From sequence record NC_019718.1: DNA of 45,805 bases. One strand, 5' to 3'. The notes below the pieces were generated by a model. That model had not been told where the DNA came from and ran no database searches. It saw only the letters and a program-made list of their open reading frames with translations. Shown one piece after another: positions 493-45,805 of the stretch (position 1 is the stretch's first letter; each line of letters begins with the position of its first letter). This DNA comes from Enterobacteria phage vB_EcoS_Rogue1. The position numbers were made by a program, and so were the translations under genes.

Positions 493-521
493 TTGATATA
501 CACGTATCTACTTGCTATAGT
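493..521 (+). promoter_or_regulatory. sigma70-like promoter (TTGATA, 17-bp spacer, TATAGT) followed by conserved leader CATCGAAACG
   Basis: -35 TTGATA at 493-498, 17-bp spacer, -10 TATAGT at 516-521; RBS GAGAGG upstream of the ATG at 555/561. Confidence 0.6.
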
Positions 522-3386: not shown

Positions 3387-3462
3387 GTTCTGCTGGCGTA
3401 ACAGGATAACGCAGAGACCTCCTAAGTCTCAGTTGCTGGTTCGAGTCCAGTGCGGAACACCA
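3387..3462 (+). tRNA. tRNA-Arg, anticodon CCU (reads AGG)
   Basis: Hand-folded cloverleaf: acceptor GTTCTGC/GCGGAAC (one G-U pair), D-stem GCGT/ACGC, anticodon stem GAGAC/GTCTC, loop CTCCTAA with U33 and A37, 4-nt variable loop, T-stem GCTGG/CCAGT, T-loop TTCGAGT, discriminator A, encoded CCA; 76 nt. Confidence 0.85.
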
Positions 3463-9002: not shown

Positions 9003-9470
9003 ATGGCAATTCGTCGTCAAGCTACTGCTGGTATGGTTGCAGATACCTCTCTGTACAATATTGATGGTGCCTGTGTAACATCTTCGGCTCTCGTGCGCAA
9101 TGTTGGCACTGCTGTTGGAGTTGATTCTGTTGTTGATGGTCACAAGGTGCTGGTAGCTCCGGCACCTGGTAATGTTTACGGCGTTCTGGTAAGGTCGCAT
9201 TACGAGTCTCCTAAAGGAACTTATGGCGGTTCTGCTGGTGATGTTGACAACTTCTCCGTGTCTAACGTAATGACTCACGGTCGAATCTGGATGGCAACTA
9301 GCCTTTCAGCAGCTCCTGCATTTGGTAGCGCCGTTACCGTTGATGCCAATGGATTAGCAACAAGCGGCGGCACCTTAACTACTAACTGGACATTCGCAGG
9401 TGGATTCCAGGCAGCTGATGCCGCATCTGGAGAGCCAGCACTGGTTGAGGTTCAGGTTATCCAAAAATAA
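9003..9470 (+). CDS. head decoration or other abundant capsid-associated protein
   Basis: 155 aa, Gly/Ala/Val/Thr-rich; strong terminator immediately downstream suggests high expression; position inside the head module. Confidence 0.45.
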   Translation: MAIRRQATAGMVADTSLYNIDGACVTSSALVRNVGTAVGVDSVVDGHKVLVAPAPGNVYGVLVRSHYESPKGTYGGSAGDVDNFSVSNVMTHGRIWMATSLSAAPAFGSAVTVDANGLATSGGTLTTNWTFAGGFQAADAASGEPALVEVQVIQK

Positions 9471-9488
9471 CTATAAACGCTTAATCAA

Positions 9489-9510
9489 ACCTCCTTCGGG
9501 AGGTTTTTTA
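9489..9510 (+). terminator. rho-independent terminator
   Basis: ACCTCC-TTCG-GGAGGT hairpin followed by TTTTTT. Confidence 0.75.
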
Positions 9511-9563
9511 TTGCTCTTTTTCTGTTAGACTGTCAATGATTATTAACCAATCAGGAGATAAAG

Positions 9564-11009
9564 ATGGCTTACACAGAAATTGCTATGGCAGTAGGTAATT
9601 CACCTGAAACCTTAGCCAGAAACGTAAAAATGATGATTTCATCAGGATTCCAGCCATATGGCGACGTGCAGATGCTGAGCGGTACCCTATTTGGCATGAA
9701 GATGGCAAAAGGAACAGCAAACAACGTTGAAGACTTCATGGTTACATCAGACACCACAATTCAGGGTTTAGTTAACAGGGTTAACCGATATCTAGCACAG
9801 GGCTGGCGAAGGTTTGGTAATGCCCACTTCGAGGATGGCGCTTATATTTCAGCTCTGGCGAAAGGTGATTTTGTAAGTGATGAGGGCGGAGGTTCAGGTG
9901 AAGCAGGTCCACAAGGTCCGGTTGGTCCAGCTGGCCCCGCAGGCGTAGCTGGTCCGCAAGGTCCGCAAGGTCCACAAGGCCCAGCTGGTGCTACCGGCCC
10001 GGCAGGCGCGGCTGGCGCTAAAGGTGACACTGGCCCCGCAGGCGTAGCTGGTCCGCAAGGTCCACAAGGTGAGACTGGAGAAGCTGGTCCACAGGGTTCT
10101 ATCGGCCCAACAGGCGCCACAGGTCCATCCGGACCAAAAGGTGATAAAGGTGATGCAGGTCCAGTTGGCCCTGCGGGATTGACTTTCCGCGGGATGTACG
10201 ACGCAGCGACAGCTTACGTTAAAGATGATGTTGTTACATTCAATAGCTCCAGCTGGTTTGCTACCACCGCTGTGACCGGAGAGAATCCAGATATTAGCGA
10301 TTCCTGGGAGTTGCTGGCCGCACAGGGCGCCCCGGGTCCGCAAGGCGCAACTGGTCCAACAGGTCCAACTGGCCCGGCAGGTCCGGCAGGTATTCAAGGG
10401 GCTCAGGGAGAGAGAGGGATTCAGGGTGAGCAAGGTCCGTCAGGCCCGCAAGGCTTGCAAGGTGCAGCTGGTCCAGTTGGACCTCAAGGCCCAGCAGGTC
10501 CGCAGGGTGAGCGAGGAATACAGGGTCCGGTTGGCCCTCAAGGTCCAATTGGCCCTAAAGGCGATAAAGGTGACGCAGGGATGTCAAGATCATTCCTTAA
10601 AGTTAGAACATCACCAAATACAGGCACTAATCACATGATTAGGCTTCCAGCACCTTTAAGCAATATTTCTATAGGGATAAGACTGGATTCAAACATTCGT
10701 TTTAGTATTAGGGCTTGGATTGATGATGGCACTACAGCTAGAACTATAAGGGGTAATATTGAAGCGTTCAATGAAACTGGAGTTTACACTAACACAACAG
10801 TAAGAACTTCGATATCTACATCAACAGAAACTGGCACAGTACTTCTTGGTGATATTGGAGAGTTCCAAGGTATCAGGCCATACACTCTTAGTTTTTATGA
10901 AACCACAACAGACACAATGTGGAGAGCAACCATAAATCTATTTACAGCTGGATACATTGTGAATGGAAACCAAGCCCTATGCATAGAGCTAGTAAGGCTT
11001 GATGCATAA
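9564..11009 (+). CDS. collagen-like (Gly-X-Y repeat) protein with non-collagenous N- and C-terminal domains
   Basis: Two long runs of [12 protein letters not shown] triplets (about 9880-10180 and 10320-10580); opposite-strand ORFs here are repeat artefacts. Confidence 0.8.
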
Positions 11010-11012
11010 AAT

Positions 11013-11037
11013 CAATAGAGAAATGATTACTCTATTG
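11013..11037 (+). other. perfect 8-bp stem hairpin (CAATAGAG, 9-nt loop, CTCTATTG) just after the collagen-like gene stop
   Basis: Inverted repeat read directly; no T-run follows, so a processing site or protein-binding site is as likely as a terminator. Confidence 0.4.
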
Positions 11038-11062
11038 TCCCAATCAAAATCTCGTGTATAAT
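11035..11062 (+). promoter_or_regulatory. sigma70-like promoter (TTGTCC, 16-bp spacer, TATAAT) upstream of the capsid gene
   Basis: Perfect -10 TATAAT at 11057-11062 with a 4/6 -35 hexamer. Confidence 0.4.
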
Positions 11063-11100
11063 TGACACGTAAACTCATAAACAAAAGGATGCATCTTAAT

Positions 11101-12048
11101 ATGACTATCAAACTTGACGCTTTCGAGCAAGAAAAGATTACTAACCACCTGCGAGCTATGGGCGTTGATAAGGCTGATGCGGCTGGTATCTGGACCGTGA
11201 AGCAGCTAACTGCAAGCCTGAATAAAGCTTACGAAACTGAGTACGACCAGAACTCCGTAGTAAACCTGTTCCCTGTAAGCAATGAAATTCCCGGCTATGC
11301 TAAGTACTTCGAGTATCCGGTATTTGATGGCGTTGGTATTGCTCAGATCGTAGCTGACTACACTGATGACCTGCCACTTGTTGACGCTTTAGCAACTGAA
11401 CGTCAGGGTAAAGTTTTCCGTTTTGGTAATGCTTTCTTGATTTCCATCGATGAAATTAAAGTTGGTCAAGCTACCGGTCAGTCACTATCTACTCGCAAGC
11501 AATCTCTTGCTTTCGAAGCTCACGATAAGCTGCTTGATAAACTGGTATGGTCAGGCTCTACTGCTCACGGTATCCCGAGTGTGTTCGACTATCCAAATAT
11601 CAACAACGTTGTTAGCGGTGGCTCATGGTCTCAACCAACTACAGCAGTAAGCGATATTACAAGTCTGCTGGATATTATCGAGACTTCAACCAATGGTCAG
11701 CACCGTGCAACTCACCTGCTTCTGCCTACTACCGCTCGTCGTATCATGCAGAACCTGGTTCCTGGTACCTCTGTTAGCTACGGTGAGTTCTTCCGCCAGA
11801 ACAACAGCGGAGTAACTGTTGAGTTCGTTCAGTACCTGAATGATTACAATGGCACTGGCACCTCTGCTGCTATTGCTTATGAGAAAGACCCTAACAACAT
11901 GGCCATCGAGATTCCTGAAGCGACTAACGCACTGCCAGCTCAGCCGAAGGATTTGCACTTCCGTGTTCCGGTAACTTCTAAAGCAACTGGTTTGATCGTG
12001 TTTAGGCCTTTAACGATGGCTGTAATGAAAGGCATTACTTTCGCGTAA
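11101..12048 (+). CDS. putative major capsid protein
   Basis: 315 aa (start refined to the ATG after AAAGGA RBS), flanked by strong terminators, positioned after the scaffold and before the neck genes. Confidence 0.65.
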   Translation: MTIKLDAFEQEKITNHLRAMGVDKADAAGIWTVKQLTASLNKAYETEYDQNSVVNLFPVSNEIPGYAKYFEYPVFDGVGIAQIVADYTDDLPLVDALATERQGKVFRFGNAFLISIDEIKVGQATGQSLSTRKQSLAFEAHDKLLDKLVWSGSTAHGIPSVFDYPNINNVVSGGSWSQPTTAVSDITSLLDIIETSTNGQHRATHLLLPTTARRIMQNLVPGTSVSYGEFFRQNNSGVTVEFVQYLNDYNGTGTSAAIAYEKDPNNMAIEIPEATNALPAQPKDLHFRVPVTSKATGLIVFRPLTMAVMKGITFA

Positions 12049-12063
12049 TAGCACTTTTTGATA
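12049..12063 (+). promoter_or_regulatory. palindromic box TAGCA-CTTTT-TGATA directly abutting the capsid stop, followed by a terminator hairpin
   Basis: Member of the repeated box family. Confidence 0.45.
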
Positions 12064-12069
12064 AGACAT

Positions 12070-12096
12070 AGCACCCTTCGGGGTGCTATTTTTGTT
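12070..12096 (+). terminator. rho-independent terminator
   Basis: AGCACCC-TTCG-GGGTGCT hairpin followed by ATTTTTGTTT. Confidence 0.75.
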
Positions 12097-12111
12097 TAAG
12101 GAGGAGCAAAC

Positions 12112-12597
12112 ATGAACTACAACGACTATTTCGCTTATGATGACGGAAAGATATTCTGGACTTCAAAAACAACAGATATGGCGCACAACATAAGACTTGG
12201 GGATGAGGCCGGGACTTGCAATGGTCTTGGTTACAAAAGGGTTATGTTGTTTGGTAAGCACACCATGGTTCATCACATAGTTTGGATCATGCATGGCAAT
12301 GAGATACCAAAGGGCATGGAGGTTGACCACTTGGATCATGATAGGCGCAACAACAGGATAGAGAATCTAAGGCTGGTAGACAGGGGTGTAAACATGAGGA
12401 ATAAGTCTACGTACAGGAACAGCAAGACCGGTCACCATGGAGTTACTATCAGGCCGGACAGTGGAAAGTATCGAGCTAAGATAACGATTAATAAGAAGGT
12501 TATCAACTTGGGTACTTTTGATTCAATAGATGACGCAATATCAGCCAGAAAGGATGCGGAAGTAAAGTATGGATTCCATGCCAACCACGGGGTATAA
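12112..12597 (+). CDS. HNH homing endonuclease with C-terminal AP2-like DNA-binding domain
   Basis: HNH core VDHLDHDRRNNRIENLRLV..N; C-terminal GVTIRPDSGKYRAKI...LGTFDSIDDAISARKDAEVKYGF resembles an AP2 domain; AGGAGG RBS. Confidence 0.85.
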   Translation: MNYNDYFAYDDGKIFWTSKTTDMAHNIRLGDEAGTCNGLGYKRVMLFGKHTMVHHIVWIMHGNEIPKGMEVDHLDHDRRNNRIENLRLVDRGVNMRNKSTYRNSKTGHHGVTIRPDSGKYRAKITINKKVINLGTFDSIDDAISARKDAEVKYGFHANHGV

Positions 12598-12625
12598 TCA
12601 AACAATCGAAACAAAGGAGGAAAGA

Positions 12626-12871
12626 ATGAAACTGTTACATAAAGGTGCTTGTGTTATCCGTCTTGGCGCAAAAGATTATCTTCCAGGCGACACTATCGAG
12701 GTTGAAGAGTTATCAGTTGGATTAAAGATTTTGGTAGCTGAAGGCAAGCTTGAGGTTGAGGATGACCATAAGGCAACTAAAGAAATCGAGCAGGAAGTTA
12801 AAGCCAAGGCTAAGCCTAAGAAGCAACCAAAGACTATTGATGAAGCTGAGAATGGCGGCGACTACAAATAA
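12626..12871 (+). CDS. hypothetical protein (81 aa, Lys/Glu-rich C-terminus)
   Basis: Start refined to the ATG after AAGGAGG RBS; followed by a terminator. Confidence 0.5.
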   Translation: MKLLHKGACVIRLGAKDYLPGDTIEVEELSVGLKILVAEGKLEVEDDHKATKEIEQEVKAKAKPKKQPKTIDEAENGGDYK

Positions 12872-39668: not shown

Positions 39669-39711
39669 ATAGCACGAATTGCTAAAACGAAAATCAAAAG
39701 ATGGGGTATAG
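39669..39711 (+). promoter_or_regulatory. palindromic box TAGCA-CGAAT-TGCTA, 22-bp spacer, -10 TATAGT embedded in inverted repeat GATGGGG/CCCCATC
   Basis: Box centre is about 42 bp upstream of the predicted transcription start. Confidence 0.55.
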
Positions 39712-39744
39712 TTACCCCATCTAAACAAACGAGAGGATACAAAG

Positions 39745-41116: not shown

Positions 41117-41502
41117 TTCTGGCAATTATCTTGCTGACAGGGTGCTCTGCTATGTCAGCCATTTCTGATTTCTTACCAGCAAAGGATGGCGTAGAGGCAA
41201 CCGCGCAGGTTGGTGAGTCCAACCAGAAAACAGGAGTTGGATTGTCAAATCAAACAGACAAATCTAGCTCAACAGAAAGCGACATGCGCAACTCAACTAA
41301 CAGAGACGTAGATTCATCAAGCCAGAAAAAGACAGCCGCTACAGGACTATCAGCCAACACAATAACAGCTGAAAAGATTGAAATTCATAGCACTGAAAAT
41401 TCTGGCTTTGACTCTTTAGTCTGGGGTATTCTGGCTGGATTAGTTTCAGGTTTGCTAACTTACTTCGCTTTAAGATTCGCAGGAAACAAAAAAGGAGCCT
41501 AA
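41098..41502 (+). CDS. unimolecular spanin (N-terminal lipoprotein signal, C-terminal TMD)
   Basis: Lipobox LLTGC at the N-terminus; C-terminal TMD LVWGILAGLVSGLLTYFAL; overlaps the endolysin gene; architecture as in T1 gp11. Confidence 0.65.
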   Translation: MRFGVVVLAIILLTGCSAMSAISDFLPAKDGVEATAQVGESNQKTGVGLSNQTDKSSSTESDMRNSTNRDVDSSSQKKTAATGLSANTITAEKIEIHSTENSGFDSLVWGILAGLVSGLLTYFALRFAGNKKGA

Positions 41503-41517
41503 TGGCTCCTTTATTTT
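41494..41517. terminator. bidirectional rho-independent terminator at convergent junction
   Basis: GGAGCC-TAAT-GGCTCC hairpin flanked by AAAAAAA and TTTATTTT. Confidence 0.7.
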
Positions 41518-41851
41518 ACGCGAACAGTTGGTCGTCTGTCATTTCTTTTATGGTCATCATCTCATTGGTGTACTTATCACTCTCACCTCCGAGGCACCTA
41601 AAGCTAAAACCGAATGGTCGCTTCGTGCTTCCTTTGCTCCAGTAACTGCCATTAACTCCATCGATGTAACCTTCAGTCATGCATCTTGCCAGAAACTCCT
41701 TTGACGCAGATGATGCAAAGTAACGCGCATTAACTCCAGCTGCCTTAGCCATTCTTTCACATTCTTTGTGGCGGTAAATGAATACCGCCAGGTGCTGCCT
41801 GTTAAACTTTTCGTAGCTCTCGCAGAACTTGAACACATCAAGGATGAACAT
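41516..41851 (-). CDS. hypothetical protein (111 aa)
   Basis: ORF immediately downstream of the 530-aa gene on the minus strand. Confidence 0.5.
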   Translation of the reverse strand: MFILDVFKFCESYEKFNRQHLAVFIYRHKECERMAKAAGVNARYFASSASKEFLARCMTEGYIDGVNGSYWSKGSTKRPFGFSFRCLGGESDKYTNEMMTIKEMTDDQLFA

Positions 41852-41855
41852 TTAA

Positions 41856-43448
41856 TTACCCCAGCAGCCGTGGATTGATATATACCTTGTCACCAATCAG
41901 GCAGGTATAGTTTTTATCATCAAGCATCGGGAGTAAGTGGTCTTTAATTTTAGCCATAACACCAGCCTGTGACTCGAAAGGTCGAACCTTACGCGCAGCT
42001 TCATAAAGTGAACGCAAACCCACAACTCCTTTACTGTTCTTGCCTTGCTTGATAAGGATATCAATTAACTTGTTCATCTCAGCGTTATCGCCAGCATGAC
42101 CAGCTGCGTTAGCTGAGGATAAGTAAGTCTTACTAAGTTCTCCAAACATCAACAAAGCCTCTTGCATGGTTTCCAGTTCAATCTCCCTGGACTTCTGCGG
42201 ACTACCGCCATTGGGGTTAAACCAGTTACGGATAGTGTGAAGAACGGCAGCAAGGCGAATTACCTGTTTATCCATTTTACCTAACGCGCCGCGCAGCATT
42301 GTGTGTGAATACTTACCGCCATCTGCAAGGTGTGGCTCCATTTCCTGTCGAGCACGGTTAAGGTGCTTCATTGCTGAGTTACTAATAGTCAACTTCACAT
42401 CTTGCTCACTCATAATTTCATGAACAAGACGGAAGTAATCAGCCTTCAACGATCCGTCAATCGGCTCATATGTTGACTCGCCATTATCATCGACGAAAAC
42501 ACGCTCACCAAGGAATGACTTTTCACGCACAAGCAAGAAACGTTCGGATACACCAATACCGCGAGCACCAGCATTCATGATTGCGACTATTGTTTCATCC
42601 TGCGCAATTACAGAAATACACCCCAGAGCAATAAAGCTCATGTTGTTCTCTGCGTTCGCACGCGCGATAGATACGTTACCAGCATCCCAGGCCTTAAGTA
42701 CCAGTTCGCTGTTTGTTTTCTTTGTTCCATCACCATAGGTCATGCCCAGCAGTGAGTTGACGCTCGTCGCCTCATCCGAGATGACAGCGAAGCTACCCTG
42801 ACGATGGTTAATGCGTGCCAGACCTTCAGGAGTAGTATCAGATACAGGGAATACGATGTCGCAAAGTTTCTCGAGCTTATCTTCCAGCTCCTCCTTCTCC
42901 TCAAACAAACCAGCCATCTCAGAAGGCGACTTCTCCTGCTTCATTTCTTTAGCCAGAGCCGACAGCTTGGCCATGATCTTTTTACGGTCACGCTTACGCA
43001 GATCGTTTAGTCGCTCAGTCTCTGCAATCATTGGAGCCAGAGACAGCGAGTTAATGGCAGATTTACCAGTTGATGGAGGCTGGCTGGTCACTACATACAG
43101 TGATGTTGGTTGTTGAGTTCCGTGATACTCAACCGTAAAGCGACCCAACATAGCTGCCGAGATGCAACCAAGGAAGTGCATATAAGCAGATGATTCAGGA
43201 AACTGAACAGAACGAGCAATGTTGCTTGATAGTTTGCCAACTACATCATAGTCGTTACCAAGCGAGATAACAGGATACTTGTCGCCAGTAGAATCAATCT
43301 CAACCGGAGCTTTCCAGAATGATGCGCTCTGGCGATAACCGTTCGCATTAATAGCAACACGTAAAGGAGGTAATCCATCCTGAGCGGCAATAGTCATTAC
43401 TTGTTCAACAGTCAATTTGTCATCATTAAAATCAAACATTATTATCAT
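41856..43448 (-). CDS. hypothetical protein (530 aa) with P-loop-like motif PPSTGKS
   Basis: Long ORF; Walker A-like SQPPSTGKSAINS about 120 aa from the N-terminus; function not recognised. Confidence 0.55.
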   Translation of the reverse strand: MIIMFDFNDDKLTVEQVMTIAAQDGLPPLRVAINANGYRQSASFWKAPVEIDSTGDKYPVISLGNDYDVVGKLSSNIARSVQFPESSAYMHFLGCISAAMLGRFTVEYHGTQQPTSLYVVTSQPPSTGKSAINSLSLAPMIAETERLNDLRKRDRKKIMAKLSALAKEMKQEKSPSEMAGLFEEKEELEDKLEKLCDIVFPVSDTTPEGLARINHRQGSFAVISDEATSVNSLLGMTYGDGTKKTNSELVLKAWDAGNVSIARANAENNMSFIALGCISVIAQDETIVAIMNAGARGIGVSERFLLVREKSFLGERVFVDDNGESTYEPIDGSLKADYFRLVHEIMSEQDVKLTISNSAMKHLNRARQEMEPHLADGGKYSHTMLRGALGKMDKQVIRLAAVLHTIRNWFNPNGGSPQKSREIELETMQEALLMFGELSKTYLSSANAAGHAGDNAEMNKLIDILIKQGKNSKGVVGLRSLYEAARKVRPFESQAGVMAKIKDHLLPMLDDKNYTCLIGDKVYINPRLLG

Positions 43449-43460
43449 CTCTCTCTAAAT

Positions 43461-43474
43461 GCCCCCGAAGGGGC
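43461..43474 (-). other. GC hairpin GCCCC-CGAA-GGGGC between two minus-strand genes
   Basis: Read directly; weak T-run, possible attenuator. Confidence 0.35.
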
Positions 43475-43482
43475 TTGACTAT

Positions 43483-43662
43483 TTACTTGATACGAACTTC
43501 AATCATCTGACCTTTATGAGGAAGATACAGCTTTGCGCGACCTCTAATCATTACGGTGATGATATTCTCCTTAAGGTCAACGTGAAGTACTTTGCGGAAC
43601 AGCGGCCCCATTTTTACCATCATGCCAGGTTTGATGTTTTCGATAGTAGTCATGATATCCAT
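43483..43662 (-). CDS. hypothetical protein (59 aa)
   Basis: Found by manual translation downstream of a box-type promoter; below the track cutoff. Confidence 0.4.
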   Translation of the reverse strand: MDIMTTIENIKPGMMVKMGPLFRKVLHVDLKENIITVMIRGRAKLYLPHKGQMIEVRIK

Positions 43663-43700
43663 TTTTTAGCCCTTTTAATGTATTTCGTTTCGATGAAGAG

Positions 43701-43744
43701 AATATATCAATTTTTGTTGTTAAGTTCTTTAGCAAAAAGTGCTA
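43701..43744 (-). promoter_or_regulatory. palindromic box (43730-43744) plus -10 TATATT (complement of 43701-43706) and leader CATCGAAACGAAA
   Basis: Box family member in minus orientation. Confidence 0.5.
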
Positions 43745-43861
43745 TTAAAGACCAACCAGACATTTGCCAACTACAACAGCGATTGCGCCCATGAAGCCAA
43801 AGAAACCAAACTTAATTACTTGTTCCATTACCGCATCAACTGCTTTAGAGATGTTTTTCAT
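43745..43861 (-). CDS. small membrane peptide (38 aa; TMD FGFFGFMGAIAVVVG)
   Basis: Start refined to the internal ATG with AAGGTGA RBS; the longer track ORF starts inside the promoter box. Confidence 0.4.
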   Translation of the reverse strand: MKNISKAVDAVMEQVIKFGFFGFMGAIAVVVGKCLVGL

Positions 43862-43898
43862 TTTGTTCACCTTAGTTTTTGTCTTCTTGATGGAAACA

Positions 43899-43942
43899 AA
43901 TATACCCGCCGAAGCGGGTACTGTCATTAGCAAAAAGTGCTA
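43899..43942 (-). promoter_or_regulatory. palindromic box (43928-43942), terminator hairpin (43903-43920) in the spacer, -10 TATATT
   Basis: Composite terminator/promoter unit; hairpin TACCCGC-TTCG-GCGGGTA followed by a T-rich run on the minus strand. Confidence 0.5.
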
Positions 43943-44149
43943 TTTTTTTAAGTGCCCTGGCGCATAGCATTTTCCATCCTTCTTATGCAAAACCCACCCA
44001 GCATATTTAAGTTGCCTTGCACAATCAGAAAAGTTCTCGCCCGCAGCGTCCGTATAGTGTGGCATAAAATAAGAACCATCATCATTTGACTCAGTTGAGC
44101 ACTTCTTACAGTCGCAATAAACAGCGATGGAATAACCTGAAACAATCAT
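43940..44149 (-). CDS. hypothetical Cys-rich protein (69 aa)
   Basis: ORF with CDCKKC...C...C pattern; coupled to the upstream ORF. Confidence 0.45.
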   Translation of the reverse strand: MIVSGYSIAVYCDCKKCSTESNDDGSYFMPHYTDAAGENFSDCARQLKYAGWVLHKKDGKCYAPGHLKK

Positions 44150-44499
44150 TTGTAAGCCGCCTCAAACTTATACATCCCATAACCCACATCAAAGCCAACT
44201 TCTTCATCACGCGTCAACTGCCAGCCCTCGCCGTCTTCATCATAAATATACCCAGCGTTACGACCAAGTGATGCAGTCATTGATACCTGGTAACGCTTAC
44301 CCTTACTGAAACTCTTCTTGAGTGGTGACTTGTGGTTCACGAAAGTGCAAAGCAAAGTCTTTGTCTTGACGTAACGACCCCGGCCAGTGAGATTTTGCCA
44401 TTTACCATGAATCTTGATTTGCTCAATACCATCTTTAACGCGAGCTTTAAACAGATTGTTATCTGAGCTGATCCAGTTTTTAGTGATAGTGGTAGCCAT
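44146..44499 (-). CDS. hypothetical protein (117 aa)
   Basis: ORF with RBS on the minus strand. Confidence 0.5.
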   Translation of the reverse strand: MATTITKNWISSDNNLFKARVKDGIEQIKIHGKWQNLTGRGRYVKTKTLLCTFVNHKSPLKKSFSKGKRYQVSMTASLGRNAGYIYDEDGEGWQLTRDEEVGFDVGYGMYKFEAAYK

Positions 44500-44524
44500 T
44501 ACTATTTTCCTTTTTGGTTTGTTA

Positions 44525-44827
44525 TTAGTTAGCGTTATGACGTTCGATATAGTCGCGGATTGTTTCGCCTACGCTTTTAGCGGCACCAAAAGTGCCCTTT
44601 GCGTGGCGTGAATCGCGGTACGTCTGGAAGAATTTACGAGCGATGTTTGCGAACATTGAACCAGTCACGCGAGCATCACCGAAATTTGTTTCGATAGCGT
44701 TGCTAATGCCATCCTTGAACTCATTTTCAGTCATGAACATCTCTGCCATGCCAGCAGTCTCGAAAAGGTTAGCTAATTCATTCATGTTGTTATGGTCTTC
44801 GGCTGTAAACAGGTTCATGTTAATCAT
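44525..44827 (-). CDS. hypothetical protein (100 aa)
   Basis: ORF following a box-type promoter and conserved leader. Confidence 0.5.
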   Translation of the reverse strand: MINMNLFTAEDHNNMNELANLFETAGMAEMFMTENEFKDGISNAIETNFGDARVTGSMFANIARKFFQTYRDSRHAKGTFGAAKSVGETIRDYIERHNAN

Positions 44828-44861
44828 CTTCGTGATTCCTTAGTTTCGTTTCGATGAGATG

Positions 44862-44903
44862 AATATACAATAAAAGCCCCGAAGGGCTTTAGCAATTCGT
44901 GCT
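44862..44903 (-). promoter_or_regulatory. palindromic box (44889-44903, TAGCA-ATTCG-TGCTA), terminator hairpin (44875-44888) in the spacer, -10 TATATT, leader CATCGAAACGAAAC
   Basis: Composite terminator/promoter unit in minus orientation. Confidence 0.5.
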
Positions 44904-45054
44904 ATTTCTTTGCTGCTTTTGCAATTGCCTTCTGGACGATGTTGAAGCTCTCAATCAAATCTTCTTTGAAGTAGTCACCAACAGGCCAACCCTTACCGCT
45001 GTACTTTGCTATAGTTTCTAGATCGTAATAGTTCAAATCAGATGGTTTAAGCAT

Positions 45055-45294
45055 TTACCTCACCTCATCAAAAGTTGCGACACCAGGGATAAACATTCCG
45101 ACCTTCCAACCTGCGATAGCAATCCATCCAGAATCGTGCTTGTGCGGTCGCTCGGCGCCATTAATCACCCACTCGTTCGGGATTGTCTTGCCGTTAATGA
45201 TTAGCAGCTCAGCTTCGTATACAGAGCCTTTTACAAATGGCGTCAAAACCTTTTTGTCTGTACTGTTAATAACGTTTGTGCAGCGAATTTTCAT
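45055..45294 (-). CDS. hypothetical protein (79 aa)
   Basis: ORF with GAGG RBS. Confidence 0.5.
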   Translation of the reverse strand: MKIRCTNVINSTDKKVLTPFVKGSVYEAELLIINGKTIPNEWVINGAERPHKHDSGWIAIAGWKVGMFIPGVATFDEVR

Positions 45295-45306
45295 ATCTCA
45301 ATCCTC

Positions 45307-45483
45307 AAATAAATGGTAAACATTCGACGCAGCCAAGTCCATCGCAGCACAGAAATCCATCTTCTGACTGGAATTGCTTAGCCAAATCAATGTCCAGCTT
45401 TCCGCGCAGCACAAGGTTGGTGTAAACTTCGTTAAGTCCAATCAGTGCGCATTCGTGGCGCAAATCGTCTTTATCAATCTTCA
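45307..45483 (-). CDS. hypothetical Cys-rich protein (58 aa, CCDGLGCVEC)
   Basis: Found by manual translation; GAGGTAGAG RBS. Confidence 0.4.
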
Positions 45484-45668
45484 TAACGCTCTACCTCGAA
45501 GTTGTATACCATTACGTTTCTATCATGCTTGTTCTTTATCACCATTGACTCAAGCTCTTCGTATACAGCCACTACATTGTAAACACCACCAGGCTCAAGG
45601 CCGTAGAATTCGTATTCTTCATCGTCAAAACCATCCGTTTTACTTAGTGCTGTTATTTTTACCTTCAT
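45474..45668 (-). CDS. hypothetical acidic protein (64 aa)
   Basis: First ORF downstream of the promoter at 45696-45739. Confidence 0.5.
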   Translation of the reverse strand: MKVKITALSKTDGFDDEEYEFYGLEPGGVYNVVAVYEELESMVIKNKHDRNVMVYNFEVERYED

Positions 45669-45695
45669 ATCTATCTCCTCGTTGTTGATGAGTTT

Positions 45696-45739
45696 ACTAT
45701 AGCCTTGCCATCCCCATTTGTCTTTAGCAAAAAGTGCTA
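45696..45739 (-). promoter_or_regulatory. palindromic box (45725-45739) plus -10 TATAGT (complement of 45696-45701)
   Basis: Box family member in minus orientation with 23-bp spacer. Confidence 0.5.
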
Positions 45740-45805
45740 TTCGTCAGATTTATGGATTGTTGCAGGCATTGCGATGATTAGCATGACTATTACACATAAA
45801 GCAAT

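Follow-up and report, generated by a model that had tools for sequence, protein, structure and literature searches.

The leftward gene block at the right end of the genome of Enterobacteria phage vB_EcoS_Rogue1 (NC_019718.1) was analysed within the complete stretch of 45,805 nt, referred to here as the window. We regard it as quite probable that this block (41516-45739) is a T1-type non-structural module that is divided into four box-promoter units and encodes a replicative helicase together with a partner protein. As judged by its sequence, it is the conserved right-arm non-structural module of T1-like phage, equivalent to ST1-ST10 of T1. The original prediction for this DNA had described small leftward open reading frames (ORFs) and a 530-aa P-loop protein under four promoters, and had placed them in an early or pre-early region. 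The ORFs of the block (41516-45668) were all located on the minus strand, which bore out the leftward transcription; small leftward ORFs were indeed present, although they numbered 11 and not nine, the minimum given before. Each of the 11 matched a PHROG family, with E-values from 1e-26 to 1e-255. The two genes that would form the conserved core, both in the last unit, are the following:

41856-43448, minus strand: DUF3987 helicase gene, 530 aa, with the motif SQPPSTGKS (Pfam DUF3987, PHROG 2373)
41516-41851, minus strand: gene of a 111-aa winged-helix protein with an acidic DDxLF tail (homologue of T1 ST10)

The large protein matched Pfam DUF3987 (PF13148) with 145.1 bits (cut-off 27) and an E-value of 4.1e-42 over profile positions 3-349 of 364, and PHROG 2373, "DNA helicase", matched it from end to end (E 3e-255). 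Its counterparts in phages AHS24 and T1 (ST9) carry the RefSeq label "DNA helicase". The ORF was found as predicted, but its start codon is probably the ATG at 43439, giving 527 aa, since close relatives are annotated from this second in-frame ATG and most homologues have a length of 522-531 aa; residue numbers in this text follow the 530-aa version. Among 29 aligned homologues with identities down to 36%, all of which matched DUF3987, the invariant positions were Q123-P-P-S-x-G128-K129-[ST], D284/E285, R296, R303 (within SERF) and R386. In the Walker B motif I223-S224-D225-E226, the glutamate E226 was invariant and D225 was shared by 26 of the 29. The SERF motif takes the place of what is presumably the SRFD arginine finger of MCM. 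An AlphaFold2 model built from the homologue alignment (predicted local distance difference test score 87, predicted template modelling score 0.85) gave an AAA+ core with a predicted MCM-like fold, and the protein could be divided into the following regions:

Residues 14-100: helical N-terminal region
Residues 104-410: AAA+ core
Residues 123-130: Walker A
Residues 127-194: long helical hairpin
Residues 220-226: Walker B
Residues 301-304: SERF arginine
Residues 454-524: winged helix

The Walker A-like PPSTGKS named in the original prediction was present. Its further statement, that the protein had no other recognisable motif, did not hold in view of the DUF3987 match (145 bits), PHROG 2373, Walker B E226, R296/R303 (SERF), R386 and the MCM-like model. 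A packaging or injection ATPase or a kinase, candidates put forward there, was rejected, as the terminase is encoded elsewhere and the predicted fold is that of an MCM-like AAA+ protein. In the model, residues 1-100 formed helices (14-24, 28-36, 39-44, 69-81 and 85-100) with no beta-barrel, and the N-terminal oligonucleotide-binding (OB) fold/zinc domain of MCM was not seen in this part.

DUF3987 proteins have been predicted to be replicative helicases of superfamily 6 (SF6) that are related to MCM and carry a C-terminal winged helix (PMC4889955); for the member AgaPH from Seonamhaeicola, ATP-dependent unwinding in the 5'-3' direction and binding to its primase were shown (PMC11724360). At E <= 0.001 the Rogue1 protein was matched by 2,457 proteins, each the representative of a cluster at 50% identity, and the helicase was present in 918 phage records. 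Longer members of the family are fused to a DnaG zinc ribbon, a PriCT-2 domain or a DnaB N-terminal domain, and in phages whose orthologues are 34-37% identical the helicase gene adjoins a P4-type primase gene. We infer that the Rogue1 protein is the hexameric replicative helicase of the phage, and that it would work with a separate primase (32888-33811) and the host polymerase. The gene of this DnaG/P4-type primase lies on the minus strand, 8 kb from the helicase gene. Pfam recognised only the primase zinc ribbon in its product, which covered only the N-terminal half of a PHROG profile of primase-helicase length, and no DNA polymerase domain was detected among the replication-module ORFs scanned; T1 and TLS have likewise been reported without an apparent polymerase gene (PMC11447400). 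Taken together, the half-length primase and the undetected polymerase lead one to expect a separate helicase partner.

The second core gene starts 4 nt past the stop codon of the helicase gene. The 111-aa protein occurred in 833 phage records, essentially all from Drexlerviridae, and its model showed a winged helix over residues 1-75 and, after it, a flexible tail that carries the conserved acidic DDxLF motif. It may serve as a DNA-binding or adaptor partner of the helicase. Within the tail (residues 100-111, "SDDELF"), D106, L109 and F110 were conserved, and some homologues continued for ~20 residues beyond the acidic motif. This tail is reminiscent of the C-terminal tips through which SSB, T7 gp2.5 and T7 gp4 recruit partners.

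Several observations weigh against the module and helicase assignment. The primase gene belongs to another transcription unit, 8 kb from the helicase gene. The phage also encodes a superfamily 2 (SF2) helicase with a VRR-NUC partner, and the authors of the TLS study treated the SF2 protein as the replication helicase (PMC11447400). No match to Pfam MCM (PF00493) was obtained for the protein at E <= 1, MCM was not among the 25 families listed for the 29 homologues at E <= 5, and PDB searches with the protein and its profile returned no solved structure related by sequence. A repeat search found no iterons or tandem repeats inside the block. Lastly, the roles that seem most likely for the small variable genes of the block, putative host takeover or anti-defence, are guesses.

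The closely following winged-helix gene would also suit a protein that recognises the origin as an initiator or recruits a helicase, in the manner of P4 alpha or the SaPI primase-helicase (7ola), and is not itself the fork helicase. Such a protein would bind the origin by its C-terminal winged helix, perhaps with the 111-aa protein, and leave bulk unwinding to host DnaB; a ~560-bp AT-rich non-coding region with two CTAC(A/C)TTGTAGGAA palindromes, just upstream of the block, fits this as well. We consider this explanation unlikely, as no iterons adjoin or lie inside the gene and the one DUF3987 member that has been assayed proved to be a 5'-3' helicase of processive type (PMC11724360). A single protein can play both roles, as MCM-type and SF3 (superfamily 3) initiator-helicases do. 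Even less probable is a translocase of the ComM/BrxL/RavA type that acts in recombination, repair or anti-defence outside the replisome, since fusion and adjacency to primases occur across the family and the protein is a core gene in ~900 phage genomes.

The AT-rich region is non-coding and comprises 45741-45805 joined to 1-492, between the leftward promoter P1 and a rightward promoter at 493-521 (both described below). It contains TA-rich repeats at ~200-290, and its palindromic CTAC(A/C)TTGTAGGAA sites are located at 333-346 and 352-365, the first within a perfect 9-bp inverted repeat (329-347). The region is a candidate origin, pac site or control region.

The block promoters share one design, which consists of a box ATAGCACnnnnTGCTAA, a weak -35 and a -10 of TATAGT or TATATT. 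Four 15-nt boxes TAGCACnnnnTGCTA (TAGCAC-N4-TGCTA) were found, each with its -10 located 22-23 nt downstream:

45696-45741, minus strand: promoter P1, box TAGCACTTTTTGCTA at 45739-45725 (0 mismatches)
44862-44906, minus strand: promoter P2 with embedded intrinsic terminator, box TAGCACGAATTGCTA at 44904-44890
43899-43944, minus strand: promoter P3 with embedded terminator, box at 43942-43928, -35 ATGACA
43701-43746, minus strand: promoter P4, box at 43744-43730, AAGAAC, 17-nt spacer

In P1 the box is followed by the -35-like AAGACA (45724-45719), a 17-nt spacer and the -10 TATAGT (45701-45696), with a score of 9/12 in the sigma-70 scan. P2 has a hairpin AAAGCCCTTCGGGGCTTT (44890-44873), the -10 TATATT (44867-44862) and the leader CATCGAAACGA; P3 has a hairpin GTACCCGCTTCGGCGGGTAT (43921-43902) and the -10 TATATT (43904-43899), and scored 10/12; P4 has the -10 TATATT (43706-43701) and again the leader CATCGAAACGA. 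The promoter positions given in the original prediction (45696, 44862, 43899 and 43701) are the exact last bases of these -10 hexamers, each of which matched the sigma-70 consensus (TATAAT) at 5 of 6 positions. The -35 hexamers matched TTGACA, which canonically stands 16-18 bp from the -10, at 5, 4, 2 and 2 of 6 positions, and only two of the four promoters passed a generic scan. The TTGCTA of the box was also considered as the -35 and was rejected, as the spacer would be 22-23 bp.

A 22-nt box pattern matched at four places in the window, of which three lie in the block, while 0.00 matches were expected; the P2 box (44904) had more than 3 mismatches to the 22-mer and is hence outside this count. 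The palindromic core TAGCA-N5-TGCTA matched 16 times against 2.4 expected, with its G/C positions conserved. Across the genome 14 oriented copies of the box were found, and at 12 of them a -10 (at least 5/6) stood at the fixed offset, compared with 1.2% of random genome positions (binomial P ~1e-21). The mean -35 match of the box promoters was 3.3/6, against 2.5 at random. A generic sigma-70 scan of the region showed no enrichment (9 found, 9.4 expected); it is the box, and not a generic sigma-70 match, that makes the promoter sites non-random.

At P2 (44904) and P3 (43942) a GC stem, a TTCG loop and a T-run lie inside the spacer, and the AHS24 record annotates the P3 site as both promoter and terminator. 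At each of these sites a single element would both end the upstream unit and begin the next. The block appears to be organised as four short units, each begun by a promoter with a 15-nt palindromic box at ~-52 to -37, a weak -35, a good -10 and a short conserved leader, and the terminators inside two of the spacers would insulate each unit from the one upstream. P1 probably drives the 64-, 59-, 79- and 50-aa ORFs, and P4 the second 59-aa ORF, the helicase gene and the 111-aa gene. The first three units would hold small accessory genes that vary between lineages. The nine ORFs outside the core pair are the following:

45474-45668, minus strand: 64-aa ORF (phrog_14327, E 9e-38), no T1 homologue
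45305-45484, minus strand: 59-aa ORF with a C-terminal CCDGLGCVEC, ending in ...FLCCDGLGCVECLPFI (phrog_9053, E 3e-39)
45055-45294, minus strand: 79-aa ORF (phrog_4448, E 3e-44)
44902-45054, minus strand: 50-aa ORF (phrog_4548)
44525-44827, minus strand: 100-aa ORF (phrog_12926, E 3e-68)
44146-44499, minus strand: 117-aa ORF (phrog_2684), homologue of T1 ST7 with 48% identity (tblastn)
43940-44149, minus strand: 69-aa Cys-rich ORF, CDCKKC...C...C (phrog_926, E 1e-26)
ATG 43861 to stop 43745, minus strand: 38-aa single-pass hydrophobic peptide MKNISKAVDAVMEQVIKFGFFGFMGAIAVVVGKCLVGL (phrog_11986)
43483-43662, minus strand: 59-aa ORF (phrog_8121, E 1e-38)

The genes are closely packed: the 59-aa ORF at 45305-45484 overlaps the stop codon of the 64-aa ORF, the 69-aa and 117-aa ORFs overlap by 4 nt, and the stop codon TAG of the 50-aa ORF sits within the P2 box. 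The cysteine motifs CCDGLGCVEC and CDCKKC and the 38-aa membrane peptide were present where they had been predicted, and the annotation of AHS24 gives this peptide one transmembrane segment; a longer version with a TTG start would begin within P3. Beyond the DUF3987 match, the Pfam and NCBIfam searches, which covered ten ORFs of the block, gave no informative hit, and the 59-aa ORF with CCDGLGCVEC had no match in either. Only three of the 11 proteins had T1 homologues by tblastn, namely the helicase, the 117-aa protein and the 111-aa protein; by this comparison the other eight are lineage-variable accessory genes, and none of the eight received a Pfam, NCBIfam or functional PHROG assignment. 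The labels "YdbL", "chemotaxis protein", "DUF2693" and "Fer2_BFD" in GenBank OQ243221 were not reproduced by the Pfam, NCBIfam and PHROG searches. A plus-strand ORF of 111 aa (43459-43794), annotated as a hypothetical protein in Escherichia phage vB_EcoS-UDF157lw, had no PHROG match and overlaps P4 and the minus-strand 59-aa ORF; it is probably a spurious gene call. One further element lies between the latter ORF and the helicase gene:

43462-43477, minus strand: GC hairpin GCCCCTTCGGGGGC

Its T-run is weak and it was not called in the terminator scan; it may be an attenuator or an RNA-stabilising hairpin.

The promoter box itself has already been published. Phage TLS carries a 21-nt repeat, aaATAGCACnnnTTGnTAAAA, in 21 copies ~76 nt upstream of start codons, which was also noted for T1, Rtp and Rogue1 and for which the authors left a stoperator, an enhancer site or an UP element as options (PMC11447400). 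P1 to P4 all fit the TLS-type consensus ATAGCACnnnTTGnTAAAA, oriented with transcription and ~76 nt 5' of a start codon. Ten of the 14 copies in the genome are outside the block, and 12 of the 14 precede non-structural genes:

1187, 2050, 12049, 19333, 34351, 36747, 37432, 38118 and 39670, plus strand: boxes outside the block
26512, minus strand: box outside the block

A terminator within the -35/-10 spacer was seen at three boxes, 12049-12110 (plus strand), 43899-43944 and 44862-44906 (both minus strand), with its T-run overlapping the -10. These spacer terminators (12049, P2 and P3) would make compact terminator-promoter junctions that match the "transcripton" idea quoted for T1 in PMC11447400. 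At many box promoters the -10 sits between the arms of an inverted repeat of 7-10 bp, and these arms vary between promoters yet stay complementary. An example at 39670 reads GATGGGGTA-TAGT-TACCCCATC (fold z = -7.9). Such sites were found here at 39670-39730 (plus strand), 1187 and 38118, and in T1 at 1451, 2270, 3536, 4345, 4865, 6532, 36445, 47116 and 47632. The repeat could be a 3' hairpin or processing site of read-through RNA, or a DNA cruciform that presents the -10.

A promoter without a box was found at 493-521 (plus strand), with a near-consensus -35 (TTGATA), a 17-nt spacer, TG-n-TATAGT and the leader CATCGAAACG that also occurs at box promoters. It precedes a DUF7174 gene (555-1103) and may be an immediate-early promoter that needs no box. 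The fixed spacing of the boxes, the weak -35, the embedded terminators and this box-less sibling with a good -35 point to the box as a stand-in for a proper -35 contact. Most likely the box makes up for the weak -35 by way of a sequence-specific factor or of the alpha subunit of RNA polymerase.

Whether the reader of the box is made by the phage bears on the timing of the block. The box may be the operator of a repressor, in the manner of a "stoperator", or a site at which an activator made by the phage acts, a possibility to which we would give somewhat less than an even chance. As an operator it would mark four strong immediate-early promoters that are later shut off; with an activator the promoters would belong to a delayed-early or middle class, and other genes would be expressed before the block. 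The palindromic core with its conserved G/C positions speaks for such a reading, as do the weak -35 hexamers and the box-less promoter, in which a good -35 and a TG-extended -10 occur together with the TATAGT and the CATCGAAACG leader of the box promoters. Two phage DNA-binding proteins with a family-wide distribution are at hand, a 157-aa Cro-like helix-turn-helix (HTH) protein (829 records) and the 111-aa winged-helix protein (833), and the options of the TLS authors include a stoperator and an enhancer (PMC11447400). The helicase loci of two non-Drexlerviridae relatives contained no box, which also fits a phage-made reader. Against a free-standing stoperator stands the fixed distance of 22-23 nt to the -10, and the A/T-rich flanks also fit an UP-element-like contact by RNA polymerase alpha, the third TLS option. 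Co-occurrence cannot separate the two candidate proteins, as both are family-wide.

The primase gene and the gene of the Cro-like protein (33864-34337), both on the minus strand, diverge from the SF2 helicase gene, and the box at 34351 (plus strand) lies in the ~100-nt gap. Klebsiella phage VLCpiS13e has no annotated gene between its primase and SF2 helicase genes, and its 9.5-kb locus contained no box; regulator and box may go together, a hint from a single case. A combined proposal goes further: the box would be the operator of the 111-aa or the 157-aa protein, the 14 promoters would form one factor-dependent regulon, and in addition the MCM-like helicase and the winged-helix protein would be a pair that by itself recognises and unwinds the origin, as in archaea and eukaryotes, but in a classical coliphage. 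We think it doubtful that all of this holds.

Early or delayed-early expression of the block is plausible from its layout, because non-structural genes stand behind 12 of the 14 boxes and one product of the block is a replication protein. The weak -35 leaves room for an activator-dependent middle class or a phage-made factor. A literature search for a time-course transcriptome of Drexlerviridae found none in the library searched. The pre-early assignment, by which the block would be a T5-like first-step-transfer region, could draw on the small ORFs without assigned function, on the orientation opposite to the bulk of the genome and on a location that in some records adjoins the end of the map. 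It is nevertheless very improbable: genomes of this kind are circularly permuted (PMC4070988), the window closes on itself, the promoter type recurs at 10 other genome sites and is not confined to one end, and a replication helicase is not a typical pre-early function.

The genome belongs to Rogunavirus (Drexlerviridae, T1-like). Positions 41400-45805 were 99.3% identical in nucleotide sequence to UDF157lw over their full length and ~97% identical to AHP24, AHS24, C119 and phiKP26, all members of Rogunavirus. In local BLAST, position 45805 ran straight into 1-78 in UDF157lw, which shows that the genome is complete and circularly closed at 45,805 bp. The gene map has the usual T1 layout, in this order:

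First part: small rightward genes, tRNA-Arg, terminase, head and tail genes
Second part: recombination and replication module
Third part: holin, endolysin and spanin
Last part: the leftward block
41491-41512, both strands: bidirectional intrinsic terminator (terminator scan; annotated on both strands in AHS24)

This terminator separates the convergent lysis cassette, whose spanin gene ends at 41502, from the leftward block. GC skew was negative across 41-45 kb and positive in most intervals coded on the plus strand. A single tRNA-Arg (anticodon CCT; 3387-3462, plus strand) lies upstream of the small terminase gene, like in other Rogunavirus genomes. An ORF of the head region contains collagen-like GGT-CCN nonamer repeats (9895-10391, plus strand); its UDF157lw counterpart is annotated as a collagen triple helix repeat protein, and positions 9068-12817, which span the repeats, had no BLAST match to UDF157lw.

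The block is typical of its family, had been sequenced and annotated before and, its promoter box aside, is ordinary. The novelty once ascribed to it does not stand, with the large protein in a known helicase family and the box published; by its DUF3987 match the protein has largely been placed in a characterised family, one of the results that the original prediction had named as speaking against it. The discovery value is small, as the genome is a near-duplicate of deposited phages, the helicase is annotated, and its family has been predicted and shown to unwind DNA. The gaps that it points to are a DUF3987 structure, none having been detectable by sequence among solved ones, the helicase that drives T1-type replication (DUF3987, SF2 or host DnaB), and the reader of the box, which governs most of the non-structural genes in a very large phage family. 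T1-like phages often turn up as contaminants and are candidates for therapy, so that a map of their transcription would be of use; such a map would bear out what is expected, not overturn it.

Compared with known systems, the Rogue1 protein resembles AgaPH and the phage SF6 helicases in an HMM (hidden Markov model) match far above the cut-off, the C-terminal winged helix and the link of the family to primases. It differs from its DUF3987 kin in that it is stand-alone and has a short helical N-terminus in place of a PriCT domain, a DnaG zinc ribbon or a DnaB N-terminal domain, and in that the primase gene is non-adjacent in Rogue1. With archaeal/eukaryotic MCM it has the C-terminal winged helix in common; the identity is only 12-16%, there is no MCM_N or MCM_OB match, the N-terminus is helical in the model, and a helical hairpin of ~65 residues is inserted after Walker A.

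The box has a superficial likeness to two other promoter elements. Its TTTGCT-A resembles the T4 MotA box, which lies 11-13 bp from the -10; here TGCTA is 22-23 bp away, and this reading was rejected. Its TAGCAC-N4-TTGC resembles the sigma-54 -24/-12 consensus TGGCACG-N4-TTGC; this reading was rejected as well, as TTGC is 2 nt too close, AG replaces GG, and a sigma-70 -10 occurs at fixed spacing. The TLS repeat, by comparison, agrees with the box in sequence, in orientation with transcription, in the distance of ~75 nt to start codons and in the A/T/G subtypes of the central triplet (AAT, TTT, GAA), and differs in copy number (21 in TLS, 14 here). What the present analysis adds to the published repeat is that the -10 follows at a fixed distance of 22-23 nt, that the -35 is weak, that three copies contain a terminator and that a sibling promoter lacks the box.

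Equivalent blocks are present in AHS24, JK06 and UDF157lw (Rogunavirus), and the gene order is the same in AHS24 and T1. ST1-ST10 of T1 (NC_005833, 44105-48674) likewise follow the holin-endolysin-spanin cassette, converge with it and have the same orientation. They share the core genes ST7, ST9 ("DNA helicase") and ST10 and the same box-promoter architecture, with copies before ST1, ST4 and ST6/7. The two blocks differ in that eight of the 11 ORFs here have no T1 homologue, and in that T1 alone has an HNH endonuclease gene (ST8) directly upstream of the helicase gene, none being present in the window.

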